Source of the DNA: Bacteroidaceae bacterium
Lineage (GTDB): Bacteria; Bacteroidota; Bacteroidia; Bacteroidales; Paludibacteraceae
Length of the DNA stretch: 64,000 bases
Reading direction: 5' to 3'
Assembly: GCA_963615895.1 (NCBI GenBank)
Contig: CAVEIE010000009.1
Span: 1,455 to 65,454 of the forward strand
Notes under the pieces: model-generated
The model's input: only the letters and a program-made list of their open reading frames with translations
What the model was told of the DNA's origin: nothing
Databases searched by the model: none
Position numbers and translations under genes: made by a program
Shown here: piece after piece, positions 7,047 through 64,000 of the stretch
Position numbering within the stretch: the stretch's first letter is position 1
How the letters are laid out: every line of letters starts with the position of its first letter

Positions 7047-7048
7047 TT

Positions 7049-46667: not shown

Positions 46668-47313
46668 AATGAATATGCGCTACACCGCAGAGCAACTCAA
46701 AAGCCGATTAGAAAAAGAGTTGCCGATTATGCGCCAAAATTACAAGTCGCTTCAAAGGACGGAGGATTTTAGTATTGTGCCGATGGCTGTGCATAACATT
46801 TCTCTATGTGTTAGTGAGCGTGTGTATTTATTCATAAAACCGACCATTCGGTTGTACGAAGCCATGTTGCCAAAACGCGGTTTCTTAGGGACGTTCTCCA
46901 AAAGACTATCAGACAATGAAAAGGAAATAAAAAAGCGCATTGCTTTTCTGAACGATATATTGCGTCAAGAGTTGGCTCTGTATAACGAGCAATTAGAAGA
47001 AGCGCAAGAGGACATTAAGCGAGAGAAAAAAGAGCAAAAGAAGGCAACCAAAGAAGGTAAAACTGCCGTCCAACAAGTGCCGCCTCTATTGGATAGAGTT
47101 GCTAATTTTAGACATATCGAGGTGGATATGTATGAGTTCCTGTACCCGTATATGGTATTGGTAAGCCGTGGAGAGATAGAACCAAACGAGCAGCAGATAG
47201 AGGAAATGCAAAAAATGCACGATATTGCTTTGGCAATTCTTCGGGAGTTTATTCCAAAGCGTGAGCAGGCATTGGAGACTTGCAACACTATTCTACAATC
47301 GGATGTCGAATGA
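46648..47313 (+). CDS. Coiled-coil protein (221 aa; small-terminase candidate)
   Basis: It lies immediately upstream of TerL and overlaps it. It has a charged coiled-coil centre. The start is uncertain (46648, 46669 or 46675). Confidence 0.4.
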   Translation: MESPKNEMNMRYTAEQLKSRLEKELPIMRQNYKSLQRTEDFSIVPMAVHNISLCVSERVYLFIKPTIRLYEAMLPKRGFLGTFSKRLSDNEKEIKKRIAFLNDILRQELALYNEQLEEAQEDIKREKKEQKKATKEGKTAVQQVPPLLDRVANFRHIEVDMYEFLYPYMVLVSRGEIEPNEQQIEEMQKMHDIALAILREFIPKREQALETCNTILQSDVE

Positions 47314-49342
47314 TAGCAATGAAATAATAGCAGAGAACAGGCGTAGATTAGCCGCACACGCTTTTTATGACCCGCTTATAGGCACACAGTATTGTGACGC
47401 AATACATCGTGTGCCTATTCATATCGAGGACGCTCCTATCATGGATATGAATATACCCTCCGAAATGGATAGTGAGGCGTTTGTCCAATTACTACGCAGA
47501 GAGGGCACATTGGGTAAGGCTTGTCGGAAAATGTACGGCGAGACATCCACCGCAAAGCATATCGCATTGTGGCGATACTTCCATAAATTACGGTGCAAAT
47601 ACGACTTCGAGTATTGGTGTTGTACTCAGATAAAGATAAAACTCAAAGGAAAAGGAAAGCGGGACTATCTTATACTTAATCGTGCGCAGCGTTATTATTT
47701 GTCCGTCTTAGAACGGTTACGCAAACAGAATGCACCTATCTATATTATTCTGCTGAAAGCACGACAGTGGGGCGGTTCTACCCTTACGCAGTTCTATATG
47801 ATGTGGATACAGAAAATGCACCGCAAGCATTGGAACTCAGTCATTATTGGCGATGTGGAAAAACAATCGAAAGTTGTACTTGCAATGTATGAGCAAGCCT
47901 GCGAGGACTACGATACTTTTATCGATGAGGGTGTGCCGACTATTCTCAAACCATACGGGCGTACGAATGATGTGCGGCAGTTGGAAGACAGGGGGTGTAC
48001 TATTTCTATTGGCTCTATGCAGAAACCGAACAAAATACGCTCGGAAGATATATCTATGGCACACCTGACAGAGGTCGGTATATGGAAAGAAACAGACGGT
48101 AAGTCTCCGGAGGATGTCATACAATCAATAGAGGGGTCTATCTTGCCCGGGGCATACACAATGCTCGTGGAAGAGTCAACTGCTAAGGGAGTGGGGAACT
48201 ATTTCCATAATACATATACCGCTGCTAAGGCTGGTGAGAATAATTTCACACCTGTGTTTATTCCGTGGTTTATGATTGATATATACTCCAAAAAGATTTC
48301 TGTTTTCAATAACGAGACAACCGAACAGGAGTACAAAGACTTTATCGCAACCATGACAGAATACGAGCAGGCTCTTTGGGATATGGGTGCGACATTAGAG
48401 GCAATAAATTGGTATCGGACAAAGTCGCGCGGCATAGACGAGTGGCGTATGAAGTCCGAGTTCCCAAGTACGGATTTAGAGGCGTTCCAATCAACGGGAC
48501 ACGGGTTCTTTAAGGACAAGTATCTTGATGAGTGCTATCAGTCTTGTCAGCAACCAAAGATTGTCGGGGAGATTGTATCGCCCGCTAATAACCTTAACAA
48601 AGCACAATACTTGCAGAACTTACGCATAGAACCAAACAATAGAGGACACCTTAAGGTTTGGGCGGATGTAGATAGGTCTGTCGATATGCGCGACCGCTAT
48701 GTGGTATGTGTTGACTTGGGTAAAGGTGCAACTGACGCAGCAGATAGTAGTATCGCCTGTGTGTTTGACCGATATTGGCAACAGGCAGGAGAGGACGGCT
48801 ACCCCGAAGTTGTGGCGGAGTGGGCTGGCAAAGAGAGTGAGACGGACTTGTTGGCATGGCGTATAGCACAGATAGCGGCATACTACAACAACGCCCTGCT
48901 CGTGATAGAGAGTAACACGATAGACAGCAGCAAAGAGAGCCGTTTCCGTGCAGTGTTGGACGAGATAAAAGACTACTACTCGAACATCTACAAGCGCAGT
49001 ATCGGTAACAAAAACGATGTGGGTACAACGGGCGGTTTTCGCTACGGGTGGAATACAAACCACCAATCGAAAGAAGAGATATGCGCTGACTTAGGCTGGG
49101 CGTTGCGTGAGGGGATGTATGTGGAGCGTTGCCGTGAGGCGGTGGACGAGATGAAGATATTCGAGCGCAAAGCCGACGGCTCGCTCGGCAATGTGGAGGG
49201 GAAACACAACCACGACGACCGAGTGATTACACGGGCGTTGGGCATTCATTTCTGCTACAAGAAAATGCCGAAACCGCATATCGTGGAGCGGGACGGCAAA
49301 CACAGCGTGGTGCGCAAAGTGGTAAACGATATGACATTATGA
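47303..49342 (+). CDS. terL: Terminase large subunit
   Basis: Start chosen at MSNDSNEII. It has the ATPase motif LKARQWGGSTL, the nuclease-half motifs VVCVDLGKG, LLVIESN and HDDRVITRALG, and is about 680 aa. Confidence 0.8.
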   Translation: MSNDSNEIIAENRRRLAAHAFYDPLIGTQYCDAIHRVPIHIEDAPIMDMNIPSEMDSEAFVQLLRREGTLGKACRKMYGETSTAKHIALWRYFHKLRCKYDFEYWCCTQIKIKLKGKGKRDYLILNRAQRYYLSVLERLRKQNAPIYIILLKARQWGGSTLTQFYMMWIQKMHRKHWNSVIIGDVEKQSKVVLAMYEQACEDYDTFIDEGVPTILKPYGRTNDVRQLEDRGCTISIGSMQKPNKIRSEDISMAHLTEVGIWKETDGKSPEDVIQSIEGSILPGAYTMLVEESTAKGVGNYFHNTYTAAKAGENNFTPVFIPWFMIDIYSKKISVFNNETTEQEYKDFIATMTEYEQALWDMGATLEAINWYRTKSRGIDEWRMKSEFPSTDLEAFQSTGHGFFKDKYLDECYQSCQQPKIVGEIVSPANNLNKAQYLQNLRIEPNNRGHLKVWADVDRSVDMRDRYVVCVDLGKGATDAADSSIACVFDRYWQQAGEDGYPEVVAEWAGKESETDLLAWRIAQIAAYYNNALLVIESNTIDSSKESRFRAVLDEIKDYYSNIYKRSIGNKNDVGTTGGFRYGWNTNHQSKEEICADLGWALREGMYVERCREAVDEMKIFERKADGSLGNVEGKHNHDDRVITRALGIHFCYKKMPKPHIVERDGKHSVVRKVVNDMTL

Positions 49343-49343: not shown

Positions 49344-49757
49344 ATGAAAAAAGCAAATTGGAAACGGGCATACAGGCAGGCGGTAGAGGTGTTTGACCGC
49401 ACGAGAGACTACGAAAACAACCTCTGTGTCGCAAGGGCAAGCGACTACCAACTGCGGTGGATTGTCCGCTATCATGTACTATTGCACGCCGGAGATTATT
49501 CGTGGATAGACAAGTTCGGCAGACCACACTCACGCAAGGCGTTGATAGCCCTTTGCAATGAGGCGTTGGCAGACATAGAAAAGGCATGGAAAGGGCTATG
49601 CGTATATGACAGCAACAGACAATACTTTGCACAGCGGGCGTTCCTGAAACGGTTGCGGTTCTCGGCGGAACATTTCCCGCTGCTTTTCCATATCAAGTTT
49701 CTTCCTCTTCTGCGATGGACTCGGAAGCCTGTTGTTGTTCGGAAGTCTCTCGGATAG
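49344..49757 (+). CDS. Hypothetical protein (137 aa)
   Basis: It follows terL by 1 nt. Its 3' end overlaps the convergent 99-aa ORF by 65 nt. Confidence 0.4.
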   Translation: MKKANWKRAYRQAVEVFDRTRDYENNLCVARASDYQLRWIVRYHVLLHAGDYSWIDKFGRPHSRKALIALCNEALADIEKAWKGLCVYDSNRQYFAQRAFLKRLRFSAEHFPLLFHIKFLPLLRWTRKPVVVRKSLG

Positions 49758-49992
49758 CCATACGCACTTTCAATGCCCGCTGCGACAGGAGTTCGAGCGT
49801 GACATCGGATGTGGACTGCGTGTCGTCGTTGAGTACCAACGGCGACACTTGCGTTATGATACGGGCAAGTGTCGCCGGGTCGGCGTTCTTAATCTGGCGG
49901 CGCAGGTTGATAATGGCGTCGCCACAGAGTTTGCGCAACTCCTCGCGCTGTGCTGCAGGTGAGTATCTCTCTTCGTTGGTGGGGCGTGCCAT
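49693..49992 (-). CDS. Hypothetical protein (99 aa) directly downstream of the giant ORF
   Basis: Its ATG lies immediately after the giant ORF stop codon (49994-49996), with no intervening base. The C-terminus is acidic. Confidence 0.45.
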   Translation of the reverse strand: MARPTNEERYSPAAQREELRKLCGDAIINLRRQIKNADPATLARIITQVSPLVLNDDTQSTSDVTLELLSQRALKVRMAIRETSEQQQASESIAEEEET

Positions 49993-49993: not shown

Positions 49994-52900
49994 TCAGTTT
50001 CTCAACTCCTTTCTTTCGTTGTATAGTTTCTTAAAGCGTTTTTCAGCGTTCTTCTCTACTTTCCCAGCGTTCTCATCGCCTCGCAAGAACCATGTCAGCG
50101 GAGCGGTGTGGATTGCCATATAACGCTTGTAATCCTCAACAGCGTGGCGATAGTCTTTCCGGTTGTTTATTACTTCGTCTATCAACATCTGCTCATATTG
50201 CGACTGTGGAATACTGAGCAACGCTTGCGATACTCGCATAAACTGAACGGATGTATCAAGGTCTTGCTCGCTATCAATGGTTGTAGCAACACGGGTGATG
50301 ATGTCTGCTGCAGTCATAGGGTCAAACCCTGCGCCAGACTGCATAAGAACAGATAGTGCTTGTGAGGCAAATTCTGCATACTTGTCGTTCTGTAAGTATT
50401 GCTCTGCTTTCTTTGCGTCTTGCGTGAAAGGTAATTCGGGAGCAAACATATCTACTACATTTGCGTGTCCGTCCAAAGCACTCTCTACAATACCTCCACC
50501 TATTAAGCCATCGAAAGGACTGAAAAGCATGCCGCCTGTTACTGCGTCTTTGGCAAGTTCTTTCTTCTTCTCATTGTCTTTGCCGAATAGGTAGTAGGGT
50601 GCATTACCTACCAATCGCCACAGCAAGTTCAACAGCGCTCCATATACGACAATTCCAATAGTAGCCGAGATGTTTGCCTTACGCCAATCTGTTTCTGCTG
50701 CTTTGCGTGCCTGCTCTTCTGTAAGCCCATCTGCAATATATTGTTTGGCACGAGAGGCTGTCATTTCGTCTTTCTTGCCTCGATTATTCAACAATGTGCG
50801 GACTGCATAGAAGAAGTTGCGGGTATATTGGAAGTTCGATGTACGGAATACAGTTAGGGCAGCCGTAAATAAATTACGGTCTACTTGTACCGGAGCCATA
50901 AATGCACCTTCGGACGACTGCTGAGAGGTGTTGAACGAAACCTCAGCATCCTGTCTTGCCCGATTTGCTGCTTCTTCCTCAGTATATCCTTTGTTGATAT
51001 AATCTGCGTATTTGCTATCATATACTGCTCTTGCTCCAGTAGCACAAGTGAGCACATCAAAGAATACATTGGCAGCCATTCCGTATTTACTACTCAATTC
51101 AAGCAACCGCTTGTTCCATTGCCAATCTGTTGTGCGCTGCATGAGACGCATATCGCCCATATCTCGTTTCCTTATACGCTTGTCGAAATTAGGTAATGTC
51201 GTTCTTGCCCACTGCATTGTTTCATGTGGTTTTATCCAATTGCGCAAGTACGATTTTACAAATACGCCATCCGTCATATAAGTAAAGAATGCGGGAAAAG
51301 AGGCTAACTGTTTGAGTGCAGTGAATGTACGGAAATTGATTTTTGCAGAGGTAACACCCTTGGCCATATTCAGCGTAAATTCAGAAAATGGGTCGGTCTT
51401 GGATTGATAAGTCCCGAGTGCCACCTTGAAAGCGTCTTTCATGTGGTTGTAGAGTTGGTCACCCTTACCGTATATCGTGCCGTTCATACCCTTTATGCGA
51501 TTGCGGAAATCAATGTCCGAGAATAGGATATTTGCGTCTCGTGTTAGTTGCGCAAAGGCAGACCAACGCTCCATTTGAGCAATATGGCGAACGACCTCGG
51601 TAAAGAAGTCGGCATTGCGTACATCCAACGGCAGAGAATTACGAGTACGGCGTTTGATTGCTCCTGTGCTTGTGCCTCTCAGTAGGCGAGAAGCGTCGGT
51701 ATCAGGGCTGCCTAAGTCTTCGTTCTTTTGGCGTGCATTAGGATTAATACGCAATGGGAAGTAATTCTCGATAGCGTCCATTGGTGCTCCAAATAAATCC
51801 TCGTGTATTGGGTTGAAACGATTGCGCAACTGTGAGAAATATTCGGTTTGTATCCAATCGACGACATCAAGTATCTCCTGTCCGAATGCCTTACGGACTT
51901 CTTGGGTGAGTTTTTCGACATCCTCCTCTGTGATGTTCATCGCACTCAGTTTCATTCGCCCGTCTTCCATCTTATTGACGGCATAGATATAGAGAGCATT
52001 GCCCGCATTGAGCGGTATTTCTTCCTCAACAGGATTACCCGCACCATCTACGCCATTCAAAACTTTAATGGAGAACTTATTGTGACTTTTGTCGTTTATC
52101 TTACGCGCTGCTTCTTCCCATGTTTTGTATTTGCCGTGTGTAAGTTCAGACATCTTGTTGTCCAATGTACGGCTTGCTTCGGTAAGCCCTGCTTGCTCTC
52201 GGTCTGCTCCGTCTATCCAGTTACGCATGAAATGGTTGTATAGATACCCCTCTCCATCGGGCGTGTTCCTACCACATAGCCGCAACATTGATTGTAAATC
52301 ACGCATAGGTGACGCAAATGCGTCCCAAATAGAACGGGCTATATCCCGTTTTGTACGGGAACGATGGGGGTTCGTTGCTATACCTTCAAGGTCTTTTGCC
52401 GCATAGTCGCGTATTTTTTCACGATTGGCGTTTTGCTTTGCAATAAACCCTTTTGCCTCCACTGCTTGACCATCTACATATTCTTGTAGGTCTTTTAGTG
52501 ATTGCGCATACGCTTCGGACTGTCCCAAATAATTATCACGCATTGCCTCCTTAATAGAACCGACTAATTGACGGCGTGCTGCTGGTTTGAGAGACATATT
52601 ATTGCGTGCTGCGTCTAACTCGTTTTGTAATTGAATGCGTTCTTGCTTGAGCGGGGCTATGCGTTCGATGTGTTGCTGGGCTATGGTGTAACCAATCCAA
52701 CGACCCTTGAACTGCGTTCTCAGACTTTCGTCAGTAGCACTCATCTCGTTAGACATGGCTTCCCCTATCATATTCTCTAACTGCTCGGTAGTAAGGTTGT
52801 TGTCTAATGCCTCATTAAGTGCCTTGAGTGCGTGTTGCCCCTGCAATGCGACTTTGCCTTGTGCAACAACTCCACTAATGTTAAGTTTTTCGATAGGTGT

Positions 52901-55900
52901 ATTCCGCAACTTGTCCCATTGGCGTTGTGCGGCTTTGACTTGAGCATCTACGATATAGTCAAATATGGTGTTCACCTCTTTGCTTATATCTTCCTTTCCA
53001 ATAGCATAAACTATTTGCGAGGCTACACGGTGCGATGTGTCAGGCATATATCCTGCCCATACGCTATTTGCCTGCATAAGAGTACTATACAGATTGAGTA
53101 ACGAACTAACCACATTGCGGTCGTATTCCGACTGTAATCGCATGGCTTTTTGTATCCCCCTAATATCGCTTCCTACTTTCTTTATAGCACTCTGCATTGT
53201 GTTATAGTCATTCTGCGCATTCTGCACCAATGTTTTCGTTGCTATCTCGCTTTGGGTCATGTGCGGTGTTGCACCAGTTGCGGAAGAAGATATGGAGAAC
53301 TCGGTTTCGTTCTCGTTCTTGGCGGGGTGTCCGAGGTCGGTGGCGTTGATAAGGTCGTAGAGGACACGGTCGGCTGCCTCCTGACGGCTGCCGAAACGGC
53401 GTATATGGAACAGGTTCTCGCCTATCCAGTTCCACAGTTGACGGAGGAGGTTGCGCATACGCTCACGCAAAGAGATAGCACGGGCGAGCGGCTGTTTGCC
53501 CTGCTTCTTGGCTTCGTCGATGTGCTTCTGTGCCTCTTGCTCCATACGCTCTGCGCCCTGCTTGCCGCTGAAACGGGAGATAATCTCGCTCAGTTTGGCG
53601 TGGTCGGAGAGGTGGCTGTAGTTGGGGTCGCGGTCAAGTTCCGCCCACATATCGGGCAGGTTCTCGCGGCTGAACAGGTCTTGCAGGTTGGCATAGAGTT
53701 CGGGGTTGCGCCGGCGCACGGCAGCGACCCACAAGTGGGTGTACTCGTGGATAGGCGTGTTGGGGTTCAAACCCTGCTCGGTGAGGTAGATGTTGCCGTT
53801 TTGAGCGTAGCCGTAGATTGTGCCGGAGGGGGTAAGGAGGAACTCGCGTTGCTGCGGTTCTCGTCCTGCTTTCCGCACCAAGTCATCAACTTCCTCATTG
53901 GTTAGCACCCGGTTCACTTTCATTGCACCGGTTATAATCCATGGGTCGGTTTCGGGATTAGGGTTGGTGCGGTAGCGATAGAAGCCATCAACAGGCAGGT
54001 GTTTCAGTCCTGCATAGGAGTGGCGGTACTTGCCGTTGTCGGTGTACCCCTCTTGTTCTGCTTCTTGCTGGTAGTTGTTATCGGCTGCATACTCCACCTC
54101 TGCCCATACAAAGTCTTTCGGGAATAGTGTGCGATTGCCGTCTGCGTCCTTTCTATTGAATTGCAGGGCATAGGGTATCTCTCCAAGGTGCCAGCCGGGG
54201 CGGTATGCGAGTTGCCCACTGCCTCCTTGCGTTCCTTTGCCTCCTGCTTTTACTTGTGGTCGTCCTGTTTTGCTTTCTCCTGCTATTGGAGCAGCGTCCG
54301 CATTGAGCCACACACCCACTGGGGTGTCTGCCCCGTTAGGATTGGCGACCATTGGCGGGTATAGTTTGCCGTCTTTTCCACGATAGAATACTTTGTAACC
54401 TATGCCTGTTTTTTGAGGAGCAGGGGTTTGGCGGACGGAGAACTGAGGTGTATCTACATTTTTTCCGACAAAAGATTTGGCAGTATCAAAATCATGTACT
54501 ACCTTTGCAGCAGAAATAGCACCTTTGTTATTATCCGTGGGGGCAATGGGAGCCTCAGTGCGAATGTAACGGAGGGCTTTTTCTTTATCTACCGACAACA
54601 GTTTCCCCTTATTAATCCAACCGATAATGCCGTCTTTGTTCTTGTCGTATATAGAACTTACAAGAACAAAGTCGTCTATTTTGGCATTCTTTATATCTAC
54701 GGAAACAATAGCCTCTTTATCATGGATTGTCATCTCTACAAGAACGGCAAATGTATTGTCGTGCGAGCCTTTGAATACGGCTATAGGGTTTTGTAGGTAC
54801 TCGGGCAGGTTGCGTATATCGGTTATGTCAAACCCATGCTCTGTTGCTTTCTTTCGTAATGTTTCGCCATTCAACACTATCCGTTGGTTAGGCATACCTG
54901 CCAATAGCAGCCCCTCGGAGGGCATACCGCAGTTGAACTTGATACGGTCGGCGTTCTCGTCGGTGTATCGGTTGAGCGTGTCGTTGAACTGCTCTGTGAC
55001 TGCCATTAGTTCTACATGGCTCTGTTTTGCGAGAACTCTCTGTGCTTCCTCTTGGCTGACAACCTCAACAGGTATGCCTGCGTCTTTCAGTGCGTCTAAC
55101 ACCGTATCGGTGGCAAGTTGCTGGGCAGCGGTGATGTGGTCGGGGGTGTAGTCCAAGTCGGCGTATTGTGCCTCCGCTGTGTCGTCTTCTGTGTCGTCTT
55201 CACCGTCTAACTTGTCGAGGTCAACGGCTTTGTGCGATTGAGTAGCGTACTTCGCCTCTTTTTCCGCCATCTCTTTTTTCATCTTCTCGGTGTACTCATC
55301 GACTAATGCTTGTGCCTTTTCCAACTCGGCTTGGTGCTCGAAAGGTTTACCCTCACGCGCACGCATTAGGGTGTTGTCCTTTTGCAGACGCTCGATATAG
55401 TCTTTGGAATAGGCTATATCATCTTTCGCCTGTTTGCCCGAAAGGACATCGTTCTCAATGGTCTCGATAAGACGGTCGAGGACTTTGGTTTGTGACGGAA
55501 CAGGTTTATCACCCAATGCAGTCGCACTATACGACAATTCTTTCTCAATAGAGATAACGGTTTTGCCGTCTTTGTAGTTTACCTTGCGGGCAAGTTGTAC
55601 ATAGAAATGGAACGGAATACCATTGAACGATACCGAATAGGCTAAGGACTTCTTGTCTCCCCACCGGTCTTCACGGAGTCTGTCGCTCTCGGCGGCTATT
55701 TCCTTGTTGAGTCCTTTGAGTGCACTCTTGACTTCTTCGGCTGTATGGCAGACCGTGCCGTTGATATTGTACTCACTGACCTTGCCGTTGGGGAAAGTCT
55801 TTTCAAGTAGGTCTATCAGTTTCTCGTTGTCGGCAATCTTTTTGGTACGATAGGCGATAATGAGGTCGTTTTTCTTGGTCTTGTCGGCAATGAGTGTCTG

Positions 55901-58900
55901 GTCGATACGGTGCTGCTGCTCGCGTGCTTTCCACTTGCGCAGGTCACGCTCGGCTTGTGTTTTCAGCAACGCATACTGCGAACCGGAAAGCATTGCCACA
56001 GGATTATCAAATATGCCCTCGTCGACATCCTCCAAGACGCGGTTTTCGAGGTTGTTGTCTATCATAGATTTGCCGTTCATGATACTGTCGATGAAGCCAG
56101 CCTTGGTTTTCAGTCGTTGATACGATGTAACATCGAGAGAGTCTTCGACACCAAAGCGCAATACACGGACAGGAATACCCCATGCTTTGTGCATATTGCC
56201 CTGTCGCAAGATACGCCCGTTACGCTGTGTATAGTCCATCGGGCGGTCGGGGGCGTCCATGTGGATAAGTGTGTGCAGACGGGTCTGTATATTCACGCCC
56301 GTACCCAAAGTCTGCGTACTGCCCATGATAACACGAATATCGCCCTCACGCACAGCGTCAAAGATTTTCTGCTTGGCGGTGTCGGACATCTCGCTGCGGA
56401 TAATGGCAATCTGGTTGGCAGGTACGCCCTGCAAAAATAATTTGTCTTTTATGTCGTTGAATAGGTTGAACCCGCTCTGCTTGTTCTGGTAACTATCACA
56501 GAATATCGCCACCGTACCATTGTATTTTTTGCTTTCATTGAGTGAGCGCAGTACCTCTGTAACGGCTCGGTTGGTTTTCGACAACGGCTCGTCTTTGGCA
56601 TTCTCGTCCACAAGGCGCGGGTCGATGGCGGCACGCTTGGCGATACCATACATCGTAAGGGGGATATAGGAGTACTCCCGTTTCTCTTTGGGTGTCATAT
56701 TCTCGTATTCCTCCAACTGGTCGCGTACGGCTGCCATAATGTCCATTAGCGATGGCGACTGCGCCAAGAATATATCTTGCGCTTTGCCTCCCTCTAACTC
56801 CGGCACTTTGTCGTTGACCTGCCCTACTTCGCGTGTAAGGGTACAGTCGGCAACAGACAGCCACAGACGCATTAACTCCGGCACATTATTGTACTGCGCA
56901 AAACGGTTGTTTGCTTTGAACTTACCGTTGGTGGCAAACTCCAACTGCTCGTTGATTTTACCAAAGTCATGCACAAAGTCGTCGAAATAGTAGATGTCAT
57001 TCTCTTTGAGCATGGACTTTGGCATGAGGTATTTCATAAAAGTCCATATCTCGGCAGCGGTGTTGCTGATAGGTGTACCTGTGGCGAAGATAACATTCTT
57101 ATGCCCGCTGCGCTCGAATACCGACTGGCACTTGAGATAGAGAGCAGCAGCACGCTTGGAGTAACTCGGGTCAACTCCCTTTACACCACGCTGCATCATG
57201 GTAGCAAAGCCAAGATGTTTGTAGTTGTGCGCCTCGTCAATAAGGAGTGCGTCGATACCCATCTCGTCGAAGTCTGCTACTTTGTCAGTCTTGCGGTCGA
57301 GCATTTCTTGGGCGCGGGCTTTGGCGTTTGCACGCTTTTCCGCCTCCTTCTTTGCGTCTTTGTCTTTGTTCTTGCTCTTTTTGCCGCTCATATTGTTGGT
57401 TTCGAGGTCACCACGAAGCGATATGAGTTCTTTCTCCATGCTATTGGTTACCTTTGCGCTCACCCCTGCTTCTTTGGCAGCCTCGATGGCGTGCATTTTC
57501 TCCTCTATCTTTTCGTTGATAAAGTCCTGCATGCGCGACTCGCTGTCAGGTATCATATCGAAGACAGACTGCGGAACAATAATCAAGTCCCAATCGTTGT
57601 ATTTGATTTTGGCATAGAACTCCTGTCGTCCCTCTGCGGTGCGGTCTCGGTCGCTGACGGTCAGTATCTGTGCGTTCGGGTACAAGTCCTTAGCGTCCGC
57701 CACGAACTGCTGTGTGGTGGCGTTCTGAACGACAATCATCGGTTTCTTGGCTGTACCCAAACGGCGCATTTCCATAGCCGTGGAGATGAGCGAGATAGTC
57801 TTGCCCGTACCCACCTCGTGTGCAAGCATAAGCGGTTGAGTCAATCCTCGTGCTACGGCTTGTTGCTGGTGCGGATAGAGGTCGTACTTGGCACTGTTCT
57901 GCCCTGGCAGATGTTTTGATAGGAATATATCATCGACCTTAAGCATAGGCACAACGGCATTAAAACGGTCGTTGTATATCTTTTGCACACGCTCGGCAAG
58001 TTCGTTGTCCTGCTGCATTTTCCCACGTGCCCAATCGACAAAGTCGTCTTTTATCTGACTAATCTTGTCGGAACAAGCGGCAGAGGCTTCTTTGTCGGTA
58101 ATGGTTTCTTTGGTTTCTTTTGTACCATCGTAGTGTTTTTCTACCTTGCTGACGACCACAGGCACATTATTCATTGCCGCAACCATCAATTCATGCCCAT
58201 AGACCTGTTTGCCGACCAATTCGGAATAGACGCCCTCGGAACGGTCTTTCTCGTTTGTTCCCCATACATCGTTGGCTATCCACGAACTGGCGACATGGTT
58301 GAGTTTGAAGTCGTTGATGTCGTATTTCTCTTTCGCATATTGCTTGTACAATTCAACGGGTATCCATGTAGAGCCTATGTTGAACTCAATCAAGTGCGCA
58401 GGTATATCAACGGGGACTACCTTGCGCAACTCCTCGATGTTAGCGTCCAACGAGCCGTCTGTGTTATGCGCCTCTGCATACGCCAGTTTCTCCCGTACAT
58501 TGCCAGATAGATACTGGTGGCGTACCTCGATGTCGCCTGTCTGCGGGTTGCGGAAACCCAAACGGGTATCGAGTATTTCTTTCTCTACCTCGTCGGTCGA
58601 TTTGCCTAACCACTCCGCAATCTTGTCGGGTTGAATAGTCCCGAACTGCTGCATAGAGAGAATAACACCGTCTTTGGCGTTTTCTGCTTTTGGCACGGCT
58701 TGCACACCGAGCACCCGTTTGGTAAACAGGTCGGTTTTGCTGACCTCTACCTTTTTCTTGCCATTGACATCGACGGTCTCTTTTACCTTTTCGATAGCGG
58801 CAATGCTTGCCCACTGCACATCATTGCGCAAGAATGCCAGAGAGGTGTTTCGGTTAAGATTACCGTACTTGCGGACAAAGTCGTCATATACGCTGTTTAG

Positions 58901-61900
58901 TTTGCGCAAGTAGGGTTTTAGTTCTGCGTCTGAGATACCTTTGGTCTGCACTTGCAAGAGGTTGGAAATGGCTTGTTTGATAGCATTGTAGTCTTTGGCT
59001 ACTTGCGCCTTTGTATAACCTTTTACCTTGTTTGAGTTGATACCCTCGATAGGCACTAATGTCTTTTTGTCACCTTTACTACCATAGGCGTTACATATCT
59101 CGCCCTTTGAATTAACCACGAGTGCGCCGTAGGGCATATCTCCCTCGATGGTTTCGTAGTCCCCGTTGGCGATAGTGCTCGGCTGTTCCTCTACGGTTTG
59201 CAGATGGTCGGATTTCTCTATTTTATCCACCCACTTTTTCAGGCGTTCCGCTTGATTAATGTCGGCAGAAGGGTAACAACTAAGCGTTGTTTCGCGCCAT
59301 GTGCTGCCGTGTTCGAAAGCAAACTCCATGACACCGCCCATATTATTGGGATGTAAAGTAAAGTAGTTGTTGTAGATAACCTTAAACTCTTTGTCCTCGG
59401 GGCGTTTATACTCTTGTGTCTTTCTGTCCCACACCTCGTCCTGCTGCTGTTTGGCAAAACGCTCGGTTGAGGTGTCGAGAACATTAATGGCACGCGGGTC
59501 TATCTGACCGTTCACACGCTTGCGCACCACGATAATATCTGAGGTGGCGTTTGTGCCGCCAAATGTTTCGTTGTTTAGACGGAAAGCACCGATAACATCG
59601 GCATTGCCCTCACCGTTGAGCCATACACGCAGGTCTTTCGACTTGTCGAGTGTGTTGCTTGTGGTAATGAATATGCCCAAGCCTCCCTGTTTGAGTTTGC
59701 GCACATTCTTGGCGATACAGAAATCGTGAATACTGCCGAAGCGTTTGGACAAGTCTTTCTCCTGTTTGTCATAGACATGCAGGTCTGTTACAAACGGCAC
59801 ATTGGTAATGGTAAGGTCTTGCGAGTTGTTGGGTATATCCACATCTTGGAAGCCTGCGTGGTGCGTGGTGGCGTTCGGATAGAGTTGTGCAAGTATGCCT
59901 GCCGTGATGTCGTCTATCTCAACGGCGGTAAGGTTACTGCGGTGAGAGATACTTTCAGGCATCAGCGCAAAGATATTACCGATACCCGCCGAACCCTCCA
60001 AGATATTACCGCCCTTAAAACCTAACCGCTCCGCTATCTGCCACATAGTATGGATGACATTCTCCGGCGTATAGTAGGCAGAGTTACGCGACATTTGGGC
60101 GGCTTCCATCTCTTCGGGTGTAAGCAACGCCGCAATGGTTTGGTACGGGGAGTTCTCTCCGTGCATTGAGTAATAGGTAGTGCCGGGTTCGCCCTTGAAG
60201 AACTCACCCAGTCCTCCCCAGCCGCTGTATTGCGACAGAACATCCATCTCTTGCGGGGTGGCTTGCCTGTCCTCGTCTTGCAGTTGTTTCAACAAGCGTA
60301 TAGCCGCGAGGTTTGCCTCGTAGCGTGCTTTGGGTGTGGCAGGAGCAAGCCGCTCTTTACTGCCCGCCGTAAAATTGCGTGTATTACGCCATTGCGACGG
60401 CTCTATATTGTCCGTCGGCTCTGCGGATGTTACAGTCGGTTCTGCAGGCTGTAGAGGAGTTCCTCCGCTTCGCTCTCCGTCATGCACCCGATGTGGTGTA
60501 CTACTTGTACCCACTCGTCCGCCGACAGGTCTTTCATCTTGCGGTTGTTGGCTTCCTCCCAACGCTCCATTCTCGTTCCGAGATTGTCCACTTGGTTCGG
60601 CTTGCGCGGTGCTACTTTCTCGCCGCCCATCAGTTCGTAGTTCTCCATTGTTGTTTGTATTTAATGGTTCTTCGGTTGTCTGCTCTTGCTGTGCTGCCTC
60701 GTTCAGTGTGTCGGTGACATCACCGAACAGGCTGAGCACCGGCTGGTTATTCGGAATGCTGTTTGTGTCCTTTTTCTTGCGGCTGGCTTTCTCTACAACC
60801 TGCTTTGCTATCTCCTGCTTGGTAGTTCCTACGGGAATAGTTGGGAGATAGTTCCTGCCAACTCTGCGAATATCGCTTAGCAAATCGGCATATGTGGTCG
60901 TTGCTTGACCAAACTCAAAATACCCGTAGGGTTGGTTGGGTATGAGATAACGGCGTTGCCCATTGGCTTGCGGGTCTTCCACGCGCCAAAACATTTGGTC
61001 TGCAACCAATGCGTCAGCATTGCCTTTGCCATAAAAGTCGCCGAAATTCTTTTGTATATTTACATATAGACACAACTCTTTTCCGTTCTCCAGTGGCAGA
61101 CTGAAATAGATTTTCCCACCCGCAGGCGCGATGTTGGCTTTGGCGATAGTCTTTCGTTTGCTTACCTCTATGCCGAGGTCGCTTGCGAGTTGTTTGGCAA
61201 GACGGTCTATGTCCTTAACGGCTGCTGCTTCTGCGGTCTTGAGATAGCCATAAGACTCGTGGTACTTTCCCGGGTCGGAGGCGTCGGCTTCGTAGAAACC
61301 GAGTACCGCGAGTTGGTTGTTTATTTTGTCCGTTGCCTGCTCTATCTTTTCGATAGTATGCTGACGGGTCTTGACCTCTGCGTCTGCCTGTTCGGGGGTG
61401 AGTGTTACCTGTTCAGGTTCTCGAACGCCTCCCTCAGCGACTTCTGTGCCGGGCTCTCGTTCTGCTCCTCTATTATCTCGTCTATCTCTTGTAATAGACG
61501 ACGCTTCTCCTTGTATAATTTCTCCCTCACGGCAAGCAGTCTCTGTATCTGTGCCTGTCTGGTCTGTTGTAATCTCTTCATCGTTTATTCGGTTAAATTT
61601 GTTTGCGTCTTCTTCGGATGTGAATATAAAGCCCCTGTTCTTGGCAAAACTGCTATAATAGCCACCACACATTTTTGCACGGGCTTTGAGCAACTTAAAC
61701 TCCTCGTCGCCGACACGCTCTGCGGGCTTAACTACCCAAATATCCTCACCGGTCTTGGTGTGTTTGGACTTGCGTACCTCTCCTATTTGCTGGTGAGGGC
61801 GGGCACTGTCTGTTCCGGGAATAGGCTCGTCGCTCTCAGACGACCATACTAACTTGGTAGGTTCTCCGAATGCGACATCATTATTCTTCCACTCAGCCTT

Positions 61901-64000
61901 GGCGAATAAGTAGTCGTTTAGTAGATTGCCTCCCCGTTGTAGTCCTCCCTGCTCCAGAGTTCCTTGAATGTGCTCTCCGCTGCTCTCTCGTCCCTCTCGT
62001 CCCAGTCCGGGAAAAACCCGCTCCTCCAGTCTTTGAACGCTTCCAGTCCCTCCTCGTAGGTCTTGTACTTGTTGTGTAGATAATTCATCTTGAACCTCCT
62101 TTAGTGATTTGTTTGCATAGTTGACAAAATTCTTCTCTGCCTTATCTTTGATACCCTTAAGATACCCTATTGACAGGTAGCGACCTGTTTCGGCAAATCG
62201 GGCAGCGGCTCGCATAATGGACGCCCCCTCCGACACCTCATTGTAGTACAACTCGACAGAGTATCCTGCATTGCGCAAGTCGGCTGCCATTTTGATAACA
62301 CTCTTACCGCCGATTTTAGGTATTACGATATTATCGCCATTCTCTACGGCTTTTGCAAGTGCGAATTTAGCTACCTTATCGCTCGCTTCCTGCACATAAC
62401 CTGCTCCATCGCCTCCGTCGAACCCGTCAAGCCACGGCTTTACGACATCGCTGTCGATGATACGTGCTTTGTTTTGCGCTGACAATGGGTTGGCATAAAC
62501 ACTACTCTTCCCTCCTGCTGGGCGACCGATAACAAACAACGCTTTGCGTTCTTGTGCTACCTCTCCGCTAAAATCCTCCTCTCCATTGCGCTTGTTTATC
62601 TTGCCTTTGGCATTAAGCACTGCACTGCCATGTTCTGCATCCAACAGGCGGGAGGCATAGTCTGCTATCTGTTCGTCGGTCAATTCAAGGCTCTGCCCGC
62701 TGCGCGCGTCTATCTTGGCTTGTGCGGCTTGGATATTCGGGTCTTGCAACAATACTTCGGCTGGTATCTTTGCGCCGTCTATCGAGGCGTAAGATATATA
62801 AGCCGATGTAGGTACTGCCAAGGGTTTCTCGCTCTGCTGCGACAATTCAGCGAACAATGCTTTTGCCTCATCGGTGATATAGGTCTTGTAGTCAGCCTTA
62901 TCAACCACAATCGACTTCCCATTGCACTCGTACCGCTTCTCTGTCTCCCGCAAAGGTACATTCTTTTTCTCGTTTAGCAAAGTACCTTGCAAATTTTCCG
63001 CTGCTTTTATTCGGTTGGCGGTGGTACTTTTCTCTTGCGCTTTGGGCGTTTCGAGAGTTAGAGCCTTGACATCGAATTGTGCAACGGTAGCATAGTCGTC
63101 CATCTCTCTGGACAACTCTTCCGCTTCCGGCAGGTCGCGCAGACCATTGTAGAACGATTTGAGGTAGGGGCGTATCTTATCACCGAACTCCTCTATCATC
63201 CGCTTGGCAAAGTCGGCAAACTTGCGTGCGCCTTTTTCTACATGGTAGCCTGCCATAATAAGACCGTCCGACAACATCTCGGGGTCTAAACCTGCATTGA
63301 GGCGGTTCAATCGCTCGTGCATACGGCGGCGGGCTGCCTCGTATGCGTCGTCGGTGAATATCTTATTCTCCGATTTCTTTTTGCCTGACTGCTGCTTGTT
63401 ACCTTTGCTGCCGTTTGTATGCTCGCCTTTGGGCGTCTCTTGGGTGGTCTGTTCGTTTTCGGTGGCTTGCTCTTTGGGTTGGGTATTTTCGATTGTTCCA
63501 CGCTTCGGAGTTCCTCCTATTATTCGTCCAGTACCTGCTTGTGGGCTTGGTATAGGAGATTGAGTTTGCGGGTTTTGAGGTCGGCTTGCGGCTGTGCCTG
63601 CGGTTGGCTCGACTGCGGCTGTTGATTGTCGGTTTGCATAATGTTGTAGTATTTCGTTCTTGATGTCCTCTACGGTACGCGGCTCGAACAGTCCTGCTTG
63701 ACCGTTCGCCTCGTCACGGGCAGAGGTGTTATACAGTGTGAGTACTTGACGGAATGTGTCCACACCGGACGACATCTCCTCGGCAAGTAACATCTCGAAA
63801 GGCGTGTAGCGGTCGCTCACTTTCCCCTCGAATGCGTCCACTTGGCGTATGTACAAAGAGTATGCCTGACCTGCTTGGCGTGCCTCGTAAAGCAAACGAA
63901 TAGCCCCGTTGATGTCGTTGGTCAGAGCATAATTGCCTAAGCGGCGGTTCTCTACGATAGACGGTAAGGCTCGGAGAATGGACTGTTTCAGCCCCTTGTC
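49994..64000 (-). CDS. Giant polyvalent protein, at least 4,668 codons and 5'-open at the window edge
   Basis: No stop codon occurs in frame between 63896 and 64000, so the caller's TTG at 63895 is not the start. Motifs located:
- GRPAGGKSS, zeta-toxin-type P-loop kinase (62501-62527)
- EGSAGIGN, N6-adenine methyltransferase motif I (59975-59998)
- NVPF, methyltransferase motif IV (59792-59803)
- GTGKT, SNF2 helicase (57797-57811)
- DEAH (57227-57238)
- QRNGRILRQGN, helicase motif VI (56195-56227)
- HEYTH, HExxH peptidase (53735-53749)
Large regions remain unassigned. Confidence 0.85.
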   Translation of the reverse strand, partial: DKGLKQSILRALPSIVENRRLGNYALTNDINGAIRLLYEARQAGQAYSLYIRQVDAFEGKVSDRYTPFEMLLAEEMSSGVDTFRQVLTLYNTSARDEANGQAGLFEPRTVEDIKNEILQHYANRQSTAAVEPTAGTAASRPQNPQTQSPIPSPQAGTGRIIGGTPKRGTIENTQPKEQATENEQTTQETPKGEHTNGSKGNKQQSGKKKSENKIFTDDAYEAARRRMHERLNRLNAGLDPEMLSDGLIMAGYHVEKGARKFADFAKRMIEEFGDKIRPYLKSFYNGLRDLPEAEELSREMDDYATVAQFDVKALTLETPKAQEKSTTANRIKAAENLQGTLLNEKKNVPLRETEKRYECNGKSIVVDKADYKTYITDEAKALFAELSQQSEKPLAVPTSAYISYASIDGAKIPAEVLLQDPNIQAAQAKIDARSGQSLELTDEQIADYASRLLDAEHGSAVLNAKGKINKRNGEEDFSGEVAQERKALFVIGRPAGGKSSVYANPLSAQNKARIIDSDVVKPWLDGFDGGDGAGYVQEASDKVAKFALAKAVENGDNIVIPKIGGKSVIKMAADLRNAGYSVELYYNEVSEGASIMRAAARFAETGRYLSIGYLKGIKDKAEKNFVNYANKSLKEVQDELSTQQVQDLRGGTGSVQRLEERVFPGLGREGRESSGEHIQGTLEQGGLQRGGNLLNDYLFAKAEWKNNDVAFGEPTKLVWSSESDEPIPGTDSARPHQQIGEVRKSKHTKTGEDIWVVKPAERVGDEEFKLLKARAKMCGGYYSSFAKNRGFIFTSEEDANKFNRINDEEITTDQTGTDTETACREGEIIQGEASSITRDRRDNRGAEREPGTEVAEGGVREPEQVTLTPEQADAEVKTRQHTIEKIEQATDKINNQLAVLGFYEADASDPGKYHESYGYLKTAEAAAVKDIDRLAKQLASDLGIEVSKRKTIAKANIAPAGGKIYFSLPLENGKELCLYVNIQKNFGDFYGKGNADALVADQMFWRVEDPQANGQRRYLIPNQPYGYFEFGQATTTYADLLSDIRRVGRNYLPTIPVGTTKQEIAKQVVEKASRKKKDTNSIPNNQPVLSLFGDVTDTLNEAAQQEQTTEEPLNTNNNGELRTDGRRESSTAQAEPSGQSRNENGALGGSQQPQDERPVGGRVGTSSTPHRVHDGERSGGTPLQPAEPTVTSAEPTDNIEPSQWRNTRNFTAGSKERLAPATPKARYEANLAAIRLLKQLQDEDRQATPQEMDVLSQYSGWGGLGEFFKGEPGTTYYSMHGENSPYQTIAALLTPEEMEAAQMSRNSAYYTPENVIHTMWQIAERLGFKGGNILEGSAGIGNIFALMPESISHRSNLTAVEIDDITAGILAQLYPNATTHHAGFQDVDIPNNSQDLTITNVPFVTDLHVYDKQEKDLSKRFGSIHDFCIAKNVRKLKQGGLGIFITTSNTLDKSKDLRVWLNGEGNADVIGAFRLNNETFGGTNATSDIIVVRKRVNGQIDPRAINVLDTSTERFAKQQQDEVWDRKTQEYKRPEDKEFKVIYNNYFTLHPNNMGGVMEFAFEHGSTWRETTLSCYPSADINQAERLKKWVDKIEKSDHLQTVEEQPSTIANGDYETIEGDMPYGALVVNSKGEICNAYGSKGDKKTLVPIEGINSNKVKGYTKAQVAKDYNAIKQAISNLLQVQTKGISDAELKPYLRKLNSVYDDFVRKYGNLNRNTSLAFLRNDVQWASIAAIEKVKETVDVNGKKKVEVSKTDLFTKRVLGVQAVPKAENAKDGVILSMQQFGTIQPDKIAEWLGKSTDEVEKEILDTRLGFRNPQTGDIEVRHQYLSGNVREKLAYAEAHNTDGSLDANIEELRKVVPVDIPAHLIEFNIGSTWIPVELYKQYAKEKYDINDFKLNHVASSWIANDVWGTNEKDRSEGVYSELVGKQVYGHELMVAAMNNVPVVVSKVEKHYDGTKETKETITDKEASAACSDKISQIKDDFVDWARGKMQQDNELAERVQKIYNDRFNAVVPMLKVDDIFLSKHLPGQNSAKYDLYPHQQQAVARGLTQPLMLAHEVGTGKTISLISTAMEMRRLGTAKKPMIVVQNATTQQFVADAKDLYPNAQILTVSDRDRTAEGRQEFYAKIKYNDWDLIIVPQSVFDMIPDSESRMQDFINEKIEEKMHAIEAAKEAGVSAKVTNSMEKELISLRGDLETNNMSGKKSKNKDKDAKKEAEKRANAKARAQEMLDRKTDKVADFDEMGIDALLIDEAHNYKHLGFATMMQRGVKGVDPSYSKRAAALYLKCQSVFERSGHKNVIFATGTPISNTAAEIWTFMKYLMPKSMLKENDIYYFDDFVHDFGKINEQLEFATNGKFKANNRFAQYNNVPELMRLWLSVADCTLTREVGQVNDKVPELEGGKAQDIFLAQSPSLMDIMAAVRDQLEEYENMTPKEKREYSYIPLTMYGIAKRAAIDPRLVDENAKDEPLSKTNRAVTEVLRSLNESKKYNGTVAIFCDSYQNKQSGFNLFNDIKDKLFLQGVPANQIAIIRSEMSDTAKQKIFDAVREGDIRVIMGSTQTLGTGVNIQTRLHTLIHMDAPDRPMDYTQRNGRILRQGNMHKAWGIPVRVLRFGVEDSLDVTSYQRLKTKAGFIDSIMNGKSMIDNNLENRVLEDVDEGIFDNPVAMLSGSQYALLKTQAERDLRKWKAREQQHRIDQTLIADKTKKNDLIIAYRTKKIADNEKLIDLLEKTFPNGKVSEYNINGTVCHTAEEVKSALKGLNKEIAAESDRLREDRWGDKKSLAYSVSFNGIPFHFYVQLARKVNYKDGKTVISIEKELSYSATALGDKPVPSQTKVLDRLIETIENDVLSGKQAKDDIAYSKDYIERLQKDNTLMRAREGKPFEHQAELEKAQALVDEYTEKMKKEMAEKEAKYATQSHKAVDLDKLDGEDDTEDDTAEAQYADLDYTPDHITAAQQLATDTVLDALKDAGIPVEVVSQEEAQRVLAKQSHVELMAVTEQFNDTLNRYTDENADRIKFNCGMPSEGLLLAGMPNQRIVLNGETLRKKATEHGFDITDIRNLPEYLQNPIAVFKGSHDNTFAVLVEMTIHDKEAIVSVDIKNAKIDDFVLVSSIYDKNKDGIIGWINKGKLLSVDKEKALRYIRTEAPIAPTDNNKGAISAAKVVHDFDTAKSFVGKNVDTPQFSVRQTPAPQKTGIGYKVFYRGKDGKLYPPMVANPNGADTPVGVWLNADAAPIAGESKTGRPQVKAGGKGTQGGSGQLAYRPGWHLGEIPYALQFNRKDADGNRTLFPKDFVWAEVEYAADNNYQQEAEQEGYTDNGKYRHSYAGLKHLPVDGFYRYRTNPNPETDPWIITGAMKVNRVLTNEEVDDLVRKAGREPQQREFLLTPSGTIYGYAQNGNIYLTEQGLNPNTPIHEYTHLWVAAVRRRNPELYANLQDLFSRENLPDMWAELDRDPNYSHLSDHAKLSEIISRFSGKQGAERMEQEAQKHIDEAKKQGKQPLARAISLRERMRNLLRQLWNWIGENLFHIRRFGSRQEAADRVLYDLINATDLGHPAKNENETEFSISSSATGATPHMTQSEIATKTLVQNAQNDYNTMQSAIKKVGSDIRGIQKAMRLQSEYDRNVVSSLLNLYSTLMQANSVWAGYMPDTSHRVASQIVYAIGKEDISKEVNTIFDYIVDAQVKAAQRQWDKLRNTPIEKLNISGVVAQGKVALQGQHALKALNEALDNNLTTEQLENMIGEAMSNEMSATDESLRTQFKGRWIGYTIAQQHIERIAPLKQERIQLQNELDAARNNMSLKPAARRQLVGSIKEAMRDNYLGQSEAYAQSLKDLQEYVDGQAVEAKGFIAKQNANREKIRDYAAKDLEGIATNPHRSRTKRDIARSIWDAFASPMRDLQSMLRLCGRNTPDGEGYLYNHFMRNWIDGADREQAGLTEASRTLDNKMSELTHGKYKTWEEAARKINDKSHNKFSIKVLNGVDGAGNPVEEEIPLNAGNALYIYAVNKMEDGRMKLSAMNITEEDVEKLTQEVRKAFGQEILDVVDWIQTEYFSQLRNRFNPIHEDLFGAPMDAIENYFPLRINPNARQKNEDLGSPDTDASRLLRGTSTGAIKRRTRNSLPLDVRNADFFTEVVRHIAQMERWSAFAQLTRDANILFSDIDFRNRIKGMNGTIYGKGDQLYNHMKDAFKVALGTYQSKTDPFSEFTLNMAKGVTSAKINFRTFTALKQLASFPAFFTYMTDGVFVKSYLRNWIKPHETMQWARTTLPNFDKRIRKRDMGDMRLMQRTTDWQWNKRLLELSSKYGMAANVFFDVLTCATGARAVYDSKYADYINKGYTEEEAANRARQDAEVSFNTSQQSSEGAFMAPVQVDRNLFTAALTVFRTSNFQYTRNFFYAVRTLLNNRGKKDEMTASRAKQYIADGLTEEQARKAAETDWRKANISATIGIVVYGALLNLLWRLVGNAPYYLFGKDNEKKKELAKDAVTGGMLFSPFDGLIGGGIVESALDGHANVVDMFAPELPFTQDAKKAEQYLQNDKYAEFASQALSVLMQSGAGFDPMTAADIITRVATTIDSEQDLDTSVQFMRVSQALLSIPQSQYEQMLIDEVINNRKDYRHAVEDYKRYMAIHTAPLTWFLRGDENAGKVEKNAEKRFKKLYNERKELRN

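Follow-up and report, generated by a model that had tools for sequence, protein, structure and literature searches.

The window analysed here, a stretch of 64,000 nucleotides from the Bacteroidaceae bacterium contig CAVEIE010000009.1, ends inside a giant open reading frame (ORF) on its minus strand. Judged by its sequence, the product of this ORF is a polyvalent protein, a large additional representative of an already known class, and its gene is part of an integrated podovirus-like prophage, which lies at a tRNA-Met gene in a Bacteroidales chromosome. We consider it probable that the complete polypeptide is a prophage protein of about 6,100–6,200 residues, in which a conserved carrier is combined with exchangeable cargo and which is carried into the cell with the DNA. 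The layout of carrier plus cargo is drawn from the behaviour of the relatives, because enzyme cassettes swap between close relatives while the C-terminal module stays.

The minus strand runs without a stop from 64000 to 49997, giving 4,668 sense codons, and the stop codon occupies 49994–49996, so that the open-ended ORF as seen here spans 49994..64000. Chance is excluded for an open frame of this length, because stops would be expected at about 3/64 per codon. The ORF caller places the start at a TTG (49994..63895); the 35 codons before this TTG at 63895 are also open, so that the frame reaches the window edge without a stop. An earlier sequence-only reading of the same DNA, which counted residues from the TTG (its positions plus 35 give the numbering used here), had described this single frame and placed the true N-terminus outside the window, in agreement with our translation. 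The catalytic motifs that it had named were all recovered, namely the kinase P-loop (GRPAGGKS at residue 492), methylase motifs I (EGSAGIG at residue 1335) and IV (NVPF at residue 1400), the SNF2 motifs (motif I, GTGKT, at residue 2064, DEAH at 2255 and QRNGRILRQG at 2592) and a zincin HExxH (HEYTH at residue 3418), and profile searches with Pfam, PADLOC and PHROG back those of the kinase, the methylase and the SNF2 part as genuine rather than spurious matches. Its view of the product as a polyvalent protein with a DarB-type methylase–helicase pair is upheld by a collinear blastp alignment to P1 DarB and an identical motif IV, and the temperate Bacteroidales phage setting that it proposed by the tRNA-Met, integrase, portal, SU10-like capsid protein and amidase described below. 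Megablast of the giant ORF against the INPHARED phages gave no match, an exact 45-nucleotide pattern from the window edge was absent from IMG/VR, and an NCBIfam search of the giant protein, with the PLxRFG model included, also gave no match.

The closest full-length relative is a protein of 6,086 residues (P0129), identical to an ORF on the IMG/VR contig L007, with which the giant ORF is collinear from residue 1534 of the relative (73–78% identity). Four blocks align: residues 1–159 with P0129 residues 1534–1691 (73% identity), residues 161–326 with 1851–2020 (65%), residues 732–2993 with 2067–4383 (77%) and residues 3182–4668 with 4597–6086 (78%). Residues 327–731, the kinase cassette, have no counterpart in P0129, and in place of residues 2994–3181, the cassette of the predicted PBECR RNase, P0129 has unrelated sequence. 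A further relative, L013, keeps the kinase and has residues 2992–3385 replaced; P0137 (6,588 residues) has the kinase together with the DarB pair, and P0133 (6,170 residues) has PBECR, a conserved domain of 205 residues that we call D205, the peptidase and the C-terminal module in the same order as here. These swaps occur among relatives that are 77–85% identical. In two other loci, L008 and L016, the C-terminal module is 68–70% identical, and L008 also has the domain at the beginning of our sequence (the N-domain), but blastp did not detect the DarB methylase–SNF2 core in either. Since these loci keep the module without a detectable DarB core, the carrier exists with entirely different cargo.

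The N-domain (residues 1–160, 63521..64000; this and all other parts of the giant gene lie on the minus strand) is the segment that is 73% identical to P0129, and it begins at residue ~1,430–1,530 in three full-length relatives; for this reason the full protein probably has about 6,100–6,200 residues. The comparison suggests that about 1,450–1,530 residues are missing upstream and that these include a ddrB-ParB domain, which in P0129 (PF18763, residues 1280–1406) stands just before the N-domain. The N-terminal region of the relatives contains a glycine-rich hydrophobic stretch and this ddrB-ParB nuclease domain. For the source genome itself, short Logan contigs from SRR13434688 were found, from which the true start was not recovered. 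In one relative that is 98% identical, L014, the giant gene appears to be divided among three ORFs, with breaks at about 3725 and about 7093. We considered whether this might be a naturally split gene and rejected it: at one break the scaffolding has left ten N, and at the other there is a single stop, which could be either an error of sequencing or a true nonsense mutation.

The C-terminal module comprises ~1,080 residues (residues 3580–4668, 49997..53263) and has one hydrophobic helix (residues 4442–4465, 50606–50677); its AlphaFold model is all-alpha, with a predicted local distance difference test score (pLDDT) of 70. When 1.84 billion cluster representatives (50% identity) were searched exhaustively and without a profile, the module was found in 872 of them at E-values up to 0.001, and in 492 at E-values up to 1e-30. 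Among the best 150 of these 872, from which all of the architecture figures are taken, the module stands at the extreme C-terminus, with a median of 107 residues after it, in proteins with a median length of 4,928 and a maximum of 7,091 residues. Their cargo varies: D205 is present in 65, the peptidase in 48, the N-domain in 35, PBECR in 31, the DarB pair in 16–17 (~11%) and the zeta kinase in two. Because so few have the DarB pair, what defines the family is the carrier rather than DarB. When one genome per species was scanned, 71 loci with the module came to light, almost all in Bacteroidales, the hosts being Prevotella, Muribaculaceae, Porphyromonadaceae, Bacteroides and Alistipes; the isolate Prevotellamassilia timonensis is among them. 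Where the related loci extend over at least 19 kb, a portal homologue was found in the flank in 34 of 45 and a terminase-like homologue in 36 of 45, and the portal gene often starts about 0.4–0.5 kb past the stop of the giant gene. Neither the module nor D205 has a match in Pfam (the comparison was made with the Pfam copy only, including its LPD models), and a Bacteroidales family defined by these two parts is not documented in the searchable literature. Some loci (L011–L013, L028, L030 and L032) are filed under bins outside Bacteroidales, among them Azospirillum sp. CAG:239, Firmicutes CAG:95, Dialister, Akkermansia and Eggerthellaceae; most are short contigs from metagenomes, with an identity of up to 92% to the Bacteroidales prophage studied here, so that they are likely to be mis-binned phage contigs.

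D205 (residues 3183–3387, 53840..54454) is a very conserved domain with the succession YKVFYRGKDGKLYPPM ... RPGWH ... VWAEVEY ... YRYRTNP, in which RPGWH, QF, YQxxA and YRTNP are invariant; the conserved-looking block from the first of these elements to VWAEVEY, which had been noticed before, is present at 54089–54397 as part of it. A search with the domain gave 510 matches, and among the matches listed the identity was 51–88% over the domain, with wholly different flanks. Residues 3197–3382 match phrog_30118, a family of unknown function. The domain occurs alone in proteins of ~300 residues or fused to other domains, namely LPD3, LPD11, LPD13, ART-PolyVal, Kinase-PolyVal, PBECR2/3, an XkdF-type protease, glutamine deamidase and DUF4406. 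Stand-alone copies (L082–L085) lie directly upstream of large proteins, with lengths from 1,907 to at least 3,657 residues, and at three of these four loci (L082–L084) the large neighbour has a DarA_C domain. With copies beside DarA_C giants and in effector fusions, D205 therefore belongs to the same injected-effector repertoire. Some stand-alone copies are fused to DUF4406, and in L085 a separate DUF4406 gene adjoins. The AlphaFold model of D205 is confident (pLDDT 87.9) and beta-rich. Foldseek against the PDB gave no fold match (best E-value 0.27), the weak top matches being RES toxin, tankyrase and exotoxin-A-like proteins with template modelling (TM) scores of about 0.2–0.26, so that a likeness of the model to the ADP-ribosyltransferase fold is a lead, not evidence; against a viral structure library, only uncharacterised proteins and weak DUF7666 matches were found.

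The best-known part of the cargo is the pair of a DarB-type N6-adenine methyltransferase (residues 1230–1560, 59321..60313; PADLOC MTase_II at residues 1302–1494, E = 4.5e-8) and an SNF2-type ATPase, which together with the linker before it and its C-terminal extension covers residues 1560–3020 (54941..59323). The ATPase is recognized by the Pfam families ResIII, SNF2-rel_dom and Helicase_C, which span residues 2039–2601, and by PADLOC DrmD, and residues 836–3017 match phrog_10089, ‘DarB-like antirestriction’, at E = 0. Blastp to P1 DarB gave three collinear segments, for the methylase (DarB residues 89–274, E = 5e-16), the helicase N-lobe (residues 624–1174, 1e-13) and the helicase C-lobe (residues 1452–1604, 3e-7). 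P1 DarB has exactly the same unusual motif IV, NVPF, and in an alignment of P1 DarB, gp55 of the Bacteroides phage BKO1-TP3 and 16 relatives, the motif is invariant in the Bacteroidales relatives that align there. A sequence search of the PDB matched only the generic helicase C-lobe. The pair covers about 1,800 of the at least 4,668 residues.

Upstream of the pair, a small helical domain (residues 200–330, 63011..63403) matches P0003–P0006, phrog_938 (at residues 210–309) and BKO1-TP3 gp55 (residues 2330–2499), and also stands before the methylase in other Bacteroidaceae DarB-like proteins. In a protein of 278 residues from a Logan contig (P0001), 92% identical to the region of residues 225–400, a MutS domain I (PF01624, mismatch-binding) is inserted between the helical domain and the pre-kinase segment, as another cassette variant. 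The zeta-toxin-type P-loop kinase cassette follows (residues 330–645, 62066..63013), with Pfam PF06414 (Zeta_toxin) at residues 484–630 (E = 2.6e-11, 43.8 bits against a curated cut-off of 22.3) and an intact Walker A motif; the segment had no match in a PDB sequence search. The conserved region after it (residues 645–1100, 60701..62068) has no Pfam match and travels with the methylase, with which it co-occurs in P0129, P0134, P0136, P0137 and P0139. Homologue searches with residues 1–500 and 645–1100 gave few fragments, by a route that yielded no protein longer than about 720 residues and could therefore not show the giant relatives. A low-complexity linker rich in G, E, Q, S, P and T (residues 1100–1230, 60311..60703) leads to the methylase; it had been placed at about 60400–60700, and residues 1101–1200 indeed consist to 63% of these six residues. 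Beyond the ATPase, a PBECR/MuF-C predicted RNase (residues 3049–3142, 54575..54856) matches Pfam PF18819 with E-values of 5e-16 to 8e-17; MuF_C corresponds to the predicted RNase that Iyer et al. (PMC5512222) call PBECR. This RNase had been missed by the sequence-only reading, which counted four enzyme modules where at least five recognizable enzyme-type modules are present in the window. The same reading had left about half of the length unassigned, and here it needs amendment in part: much of that half falls in families, with residues 836–3017 in the DarB-like profile, residues 3183–3387 in a mobile conserved domain and residues 3580–4668 in the C-terminal module, whereas residues 645–1100 are still without an assignment in Pfam.

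The segment between D205 and the C-terminal module (residues 3388–3560, 53321..53839) is a putative gluzincin-like metallopeptidase, in which HEYTH at residue 3418 is followed by a candidate third ligand, E3472. In 48 homologues with a median identity of 32%, H3418, E3419 and H3422 never vary and E3472 is retained in 98%; since HExxH and a downstream Glu conserved across these homologues form the gluzincin pattern, the HExxH is not a chance motif. Curated peptidase profiles in Pfam gave no match to the giant protein, MPTase-PolyVal not even at E-values up to 10, so that a zincin fold is a candidate assignment here.

Positions 1 to about 23,200 of the window are host chromosome and contain a hybrid two-component regulator of Bacteroidales type (12556–16800), a phosphoglucomutase gene (17879–19264) and an OmpA-family gene (21589–23151); five tRNA genes (Arg, Asn, Leu, Leu and Gly) lie at 4125–7454. 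The left boundary of the prophage is the tRNA-Met gene (23296–23371, plus strand, found by ARAGORN), directly followed by a tyrosine integrase (23507–24766, plus strand; Pfam Phage_int_SAM_5, Arm-DNA-bind_5 and Phage_integrase). A P22-type portal gene (27874–29838, minus strand; phrog_156, E = 1e-58; PF16510) encodes a protein 33–34% identical to the portals of the Bacteroides phages BS-TP4, BKO1-TP3 and BF1-TP2. Directly upstream of it lies a second very large ORF of 1,746 residues (29853–35093, minus strand), which matches phrog_32516 (unknown function) and had no match in a Pfam search. Its GC content is 0.39–0.42, compared with 0.49–0.52 in the neighbouring intervals, weak homologues of it lie beside the portal gene in L017 and L062, and it occupies the site taken by the giant polyvalent gene in many relatives. 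The other prophage genes include an amidase endolysin (35879–36295), tail-fibre fragments and an SU10-like major capsid protein (43931–45343, minus strand; Pfam PF17236, E = 7e-14). A terminase-like gene (47225–49342, plus strand; match to phrog_24361, ‘terminase’, at residues 530–675) is convergent with the giant gene, the neighbours of which in the window are thus terminase-like and capsid genes. Directly downstream of the giant gene is an ORF of 99 residues (49693–49992, minus strand) that matches no family; tblastn found it in seven related loci, at up to 97% identity. The template and variable repeats of a diversity-generating retroelement, present in related Bacteroides phages, were sought in the prophage and none was found.

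We propose the following scheme, starting from what was observed: which domains are present, that cassettes are exchanged between close relatives, that the module is C-terminal throughout the family, and that the gene is linked to those for portal, terminase and capsid. The carrier would consist of the N-terminal region, most of which lies beyond the window, and a C-terminal unit formed by the gluzincin-like peptidase and the all-alpha module; the cargo between these parts, joined by low-complexity linkers, would be the kinase, the methylase with the SNF2 translocase, the PBECR RNase and D205. The C-terminal module would direct the protein into the head, or form part of the ejection apparatus, and the giant protein would enter the cell together with the DNA, so that its cassettes could act at once. 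The peptidase may cut the protein into units; the zincin peptidases of polyvalent proteins have been proposed to process the polypeptide (PMC5512222). In the cell, the methylase–translocase would act in cis to shield the entering DNA against type I restriction, host RNA and cell-wall or nucleotide targets would be attacked by the RNase and the kinase, and the upstream ParB nuclease and D205 may hit other host targets. We put forward more tentatively, as a serious possibility rather than an expectation, a bolder form of this scheme, in which the peptidase, the C-terminal module and the N-terminal region are an undescribed incorporation and ejection carrier of Bacteroidota podovirus-like phages (at least 872 clusters), with cassettes swapped freely, the DarB pair optional and D205 a new enzyme family of the injected repertoire.

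Several points weigh against this scheme. Packaging, injection and processing by the peptidase are inferred by analogy with P1 DarB, the N4 virion RNA polymerase (vRNAP) and the virion proteomics of the Lessievirus JC1; similarly, the full architecture is deduced from relatives, with the N-terminus beyond the window. In this prophage the giant gene is not beside the portal gene; the separate ORF of 1,746 residues is. Foldseek of the C-terminal module against the PDB found only non-specific helical membrane proteins (best E-value 0.04, TM scores below 0.1), and two candidate identities for the module failed: comparison with the N4 gp50 encapsidation domain gave a hidden Markov model (HMM) E-value of about 1 and an hhalign probability below 1%, and for a diverged PLxRFG-type C-terminus, as in Lessievirus and BKO1-TP3, the hhalign probability was 0.3% and the module HMM did not match DC1 gp67, LASTA gp01 or BKO1-TP3 gp55. 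For the nearest outlying match to the module, Tenacibaculum phage Gundel_1 gp74, the label ‘structural protein’ is an annotation, the experimental basis of which could not be confirmed. DarA, Hdf, DdrA, DdrB and Ulx are parts of the P1 Dar system in which DarB is packaged; a tblastn search of the window with P1 DarA, DdrA, DdrB and Ulx gave a best E-value of 0.11, in host DNA, a search that did not include Hdf and would miss distant homologues.

A possible, although in our view rather unlikely, alternative is that the giant protein is mainly a structural or ejection protein, the termini of which sit in an internal core or a trans-envelope conduit, as in the T7 gp14–16 proteins, the P22 ejection proteins and the N-terminus of N4 gp50, with the cassettes as dispensable passengers. 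This view and the scheme above overlap, and the sole difference is the role that they treat as essential. In its favour, no part of the family other than the C-terminal module is universally conserved, and the module is predicted to be all-alpha with one hydrophobic helix; but that helix is the only hydrophobic segment, and a weak one, in 1,089 residues, and neither the PDB sequence search nor Foldseek found any similarity in sequence or fold to a known ejection or core protein. Further points in its favour are that the giant gene usually adjoins the portal gene in the related loci, that its surroundings, with the P22-type portal and the SU10-like capsid protein, resemble those in a podovirus, and that phage PTXU04 has a polyvalent protein among its fitness genes (PMC11879866). 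Set against this, the cassettes retain intact catalytic motifs, which argues for selection on their activity.

The same cassettes bear on the narrower view, emphasized by the sequence-only reading, that the protein is an enlarged DarB orthologue with protection against type I restriction as its sole relevant function. The PHROG label at E = 0, the collinearity with P1 DarB and the shared motif IV all favour this view, which we nevertheless regard as improbable: the pair accounts for less than half of the residues in the window and is found in about a tenth of the best 150 module proteins, blastp did not detect it in L008 and L016, which retain the carrier, the protein has further enzyme modules that are intact, and no P1 Dar accessory genes were detected in the window. 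It is far less probable still that the protein belongs to a conjugative element, as one of its effectors, or serves as an interbacterial toxin. Polyvalent proteins are about equally common in conjugative elements and phages (PMC5512222) and zeta-toxin kinases occur in toxin systems too, but the gene lies inside a prophage with integrase, portal, capsid, terminase-like, amidase and tail-fibre genes or fragments, no transfer or secretion genes were seen in the window, and fusions with ddrB-ParB and PBECR have been reported as phage-type features. An assembly artefact or decaying pseudogene, for which the split ORFs of L014 might be cited, has a negligible probability, given that the breaks in L014 are one N run and one single stop, that the ORF is uninterrupted over 14 kb with its catalytic motifs conserved, and that intact ORFs from independent assemblies (P0129/L007, L013 and P0133) align with it collinearly.

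On the reading that we prefer, a carrier that brings exchangeable enzymes into the cell, the protein is of interest for several reasons. Polyvalent proteins are thought to deliver the first wave of counter-defence enzymes for phages and plasmids and, to our knowledge, almost none has been studied outside P1 and N4. Temperate phages of Bacteroidales are abundant in the gut, and the present locus shows that they spend over 14 kb on such a protein; the genomes of the related phages BKO1-TP3, BS-TP4 and BF1-TP2, by comparison, measure 64–68 kb. The C-terminal carrier remains constant while enzymes are exchanged between close relatives, and the family offers a natural setting in which to study how short-tailed capsids are loaded with very large proteins and eject them. 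The carrier module and D205, neither of which has a fold match in the PDB, are concrete targets, and these two structurally unassigned, highly conserved modules are the parts most worth following up. There is also a warning for annotation, in that the label ‘DarB-like antirestriction’ fits one cassette, not the whole protein family.

Among known systems, the obvious comparison is P1 DarB, a capsid-packaged protein of 2,255 residues that acts in defence against type I restriction. The methylase, helicase N-lobe and helicase C-lobe are collinear in the two proteins and share NVPF, and in P1 the darB gene adjoins the portal gene; in contrast, the part of our protein within the window is over twice as long, and the DarB-like part is one cassette among several. 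Closer at hand is gp55 of BKO1-TP3 (PQ571269.1), a protein of 5,553 residues from an isolated temperate phage, annotated ‘DarB-like antirestriction’. Its core is 46% identical to ours over about 2,000 residues, it has the helical domain before the pair and the portals of the two phages are 34% identical. However, its N- and C-terminal thirds are unrelated, its gene is directly upstream of the portal gene, and at its C-terminus it has, in place of the module found here, a Lessievirus-type sequence that shares 22% identity with residues 3814–4508 of DC1 gp67. The paper on the BKO1-TP3 isolate makes no mention of DarB or anti-restriction (PMC12694917).

The giant proteins of Lessievirus and Lastavirus (Bcep22 gp75, DC1 gp67 of 4,650 residues, JC1 gp69 of 4,515 residues and LASTA gp01 of 4,433 residues) are annotated ‘PLxRFG domain-containing’. 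They resemble our protein in a DarB-like core, 28–31% identical over 81–90% of a query of 1,800 residues, and in their temperate or podovirus context, but they have a different C-terminal module, the giant protein having no PLxRFG-type C-terminal domain, an annotated lytic transglycosylase, of which none was seen here, and hosts among the Proteobacteria. Mass spectrometry of CsCl-purified JC1 virions identified the DarB-like gp69 by 51 unique peptides (PMC9144972). Encapsidation of the N4 vRNAP, gp50, a very large protein that is packaged and injected, requires its C-terminal 1,400 residues, with a zincin peptidase domain and a further domain among them (PMC5512222). Our protein has a similar layout, with a putative zincin-type peptidase and a further module at its C-terminus; there is no detectable sequence similarity between the two, and the cargo of gp50 is an RNA polymerase, not counter-defence enzymes. 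The C-terminal module itself has a distant counterpart in Gundel_1 gp74 (2,482 residues; Pachyviridae, a podovirus), the C-terminal ~900 residues of which match the module HMM collinearly (E = 4e-10; tblastn, 7e-11). Gundel_1 infects a Bacteroidota host and has its portal gene a few genes downstream of that for gp74, but gp74 is only about 20% identical, is much shorter, lacks the DarB pair and comes from a lytic marine phage.

The sequence-only reading had described the combination and size as unexplored. This overstates the case, because the class was described in 2017, giant DarB-like proteins are annotated in Lessievirus and Lastavirus, and BKO1-TP3 has its own gene for 5,553 residues. Polyvalent proteins as defined then are large polypeptides, often of more than 2,000 residues, with unrelated effectors (Iyer, Burroughs, Anand, de Souza, Aravind 2017, J Bacteriol; PMC5512222), and their repertoire includes the methylase–SNF2 pair, PBECR RNases, zeta-toxin-like kinases and ddrB-ParB, with the genes lying beside head genes (PMC5512222). 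Our protein combines several such unrelated effectors (kinase, methylase, SNF2, PBECR and HExxH) in one polypeptide of at least 4,668 residues, within a prophage that has portal–terminase packaging genes; of the hallmark domains, PF18819, the methylase–SNF2 pair and HExxH are present, and ddrB-ParB is seen only in the collinear relative P0129. It is thus like the proteins of Iyer et al. in its mosaic architecture, its enzyme types and its setting in a prophage with portal–terminase packaging, and differs from them in the order of its modules and in possessing the C-terminal module of ~1,080 residues and D205.

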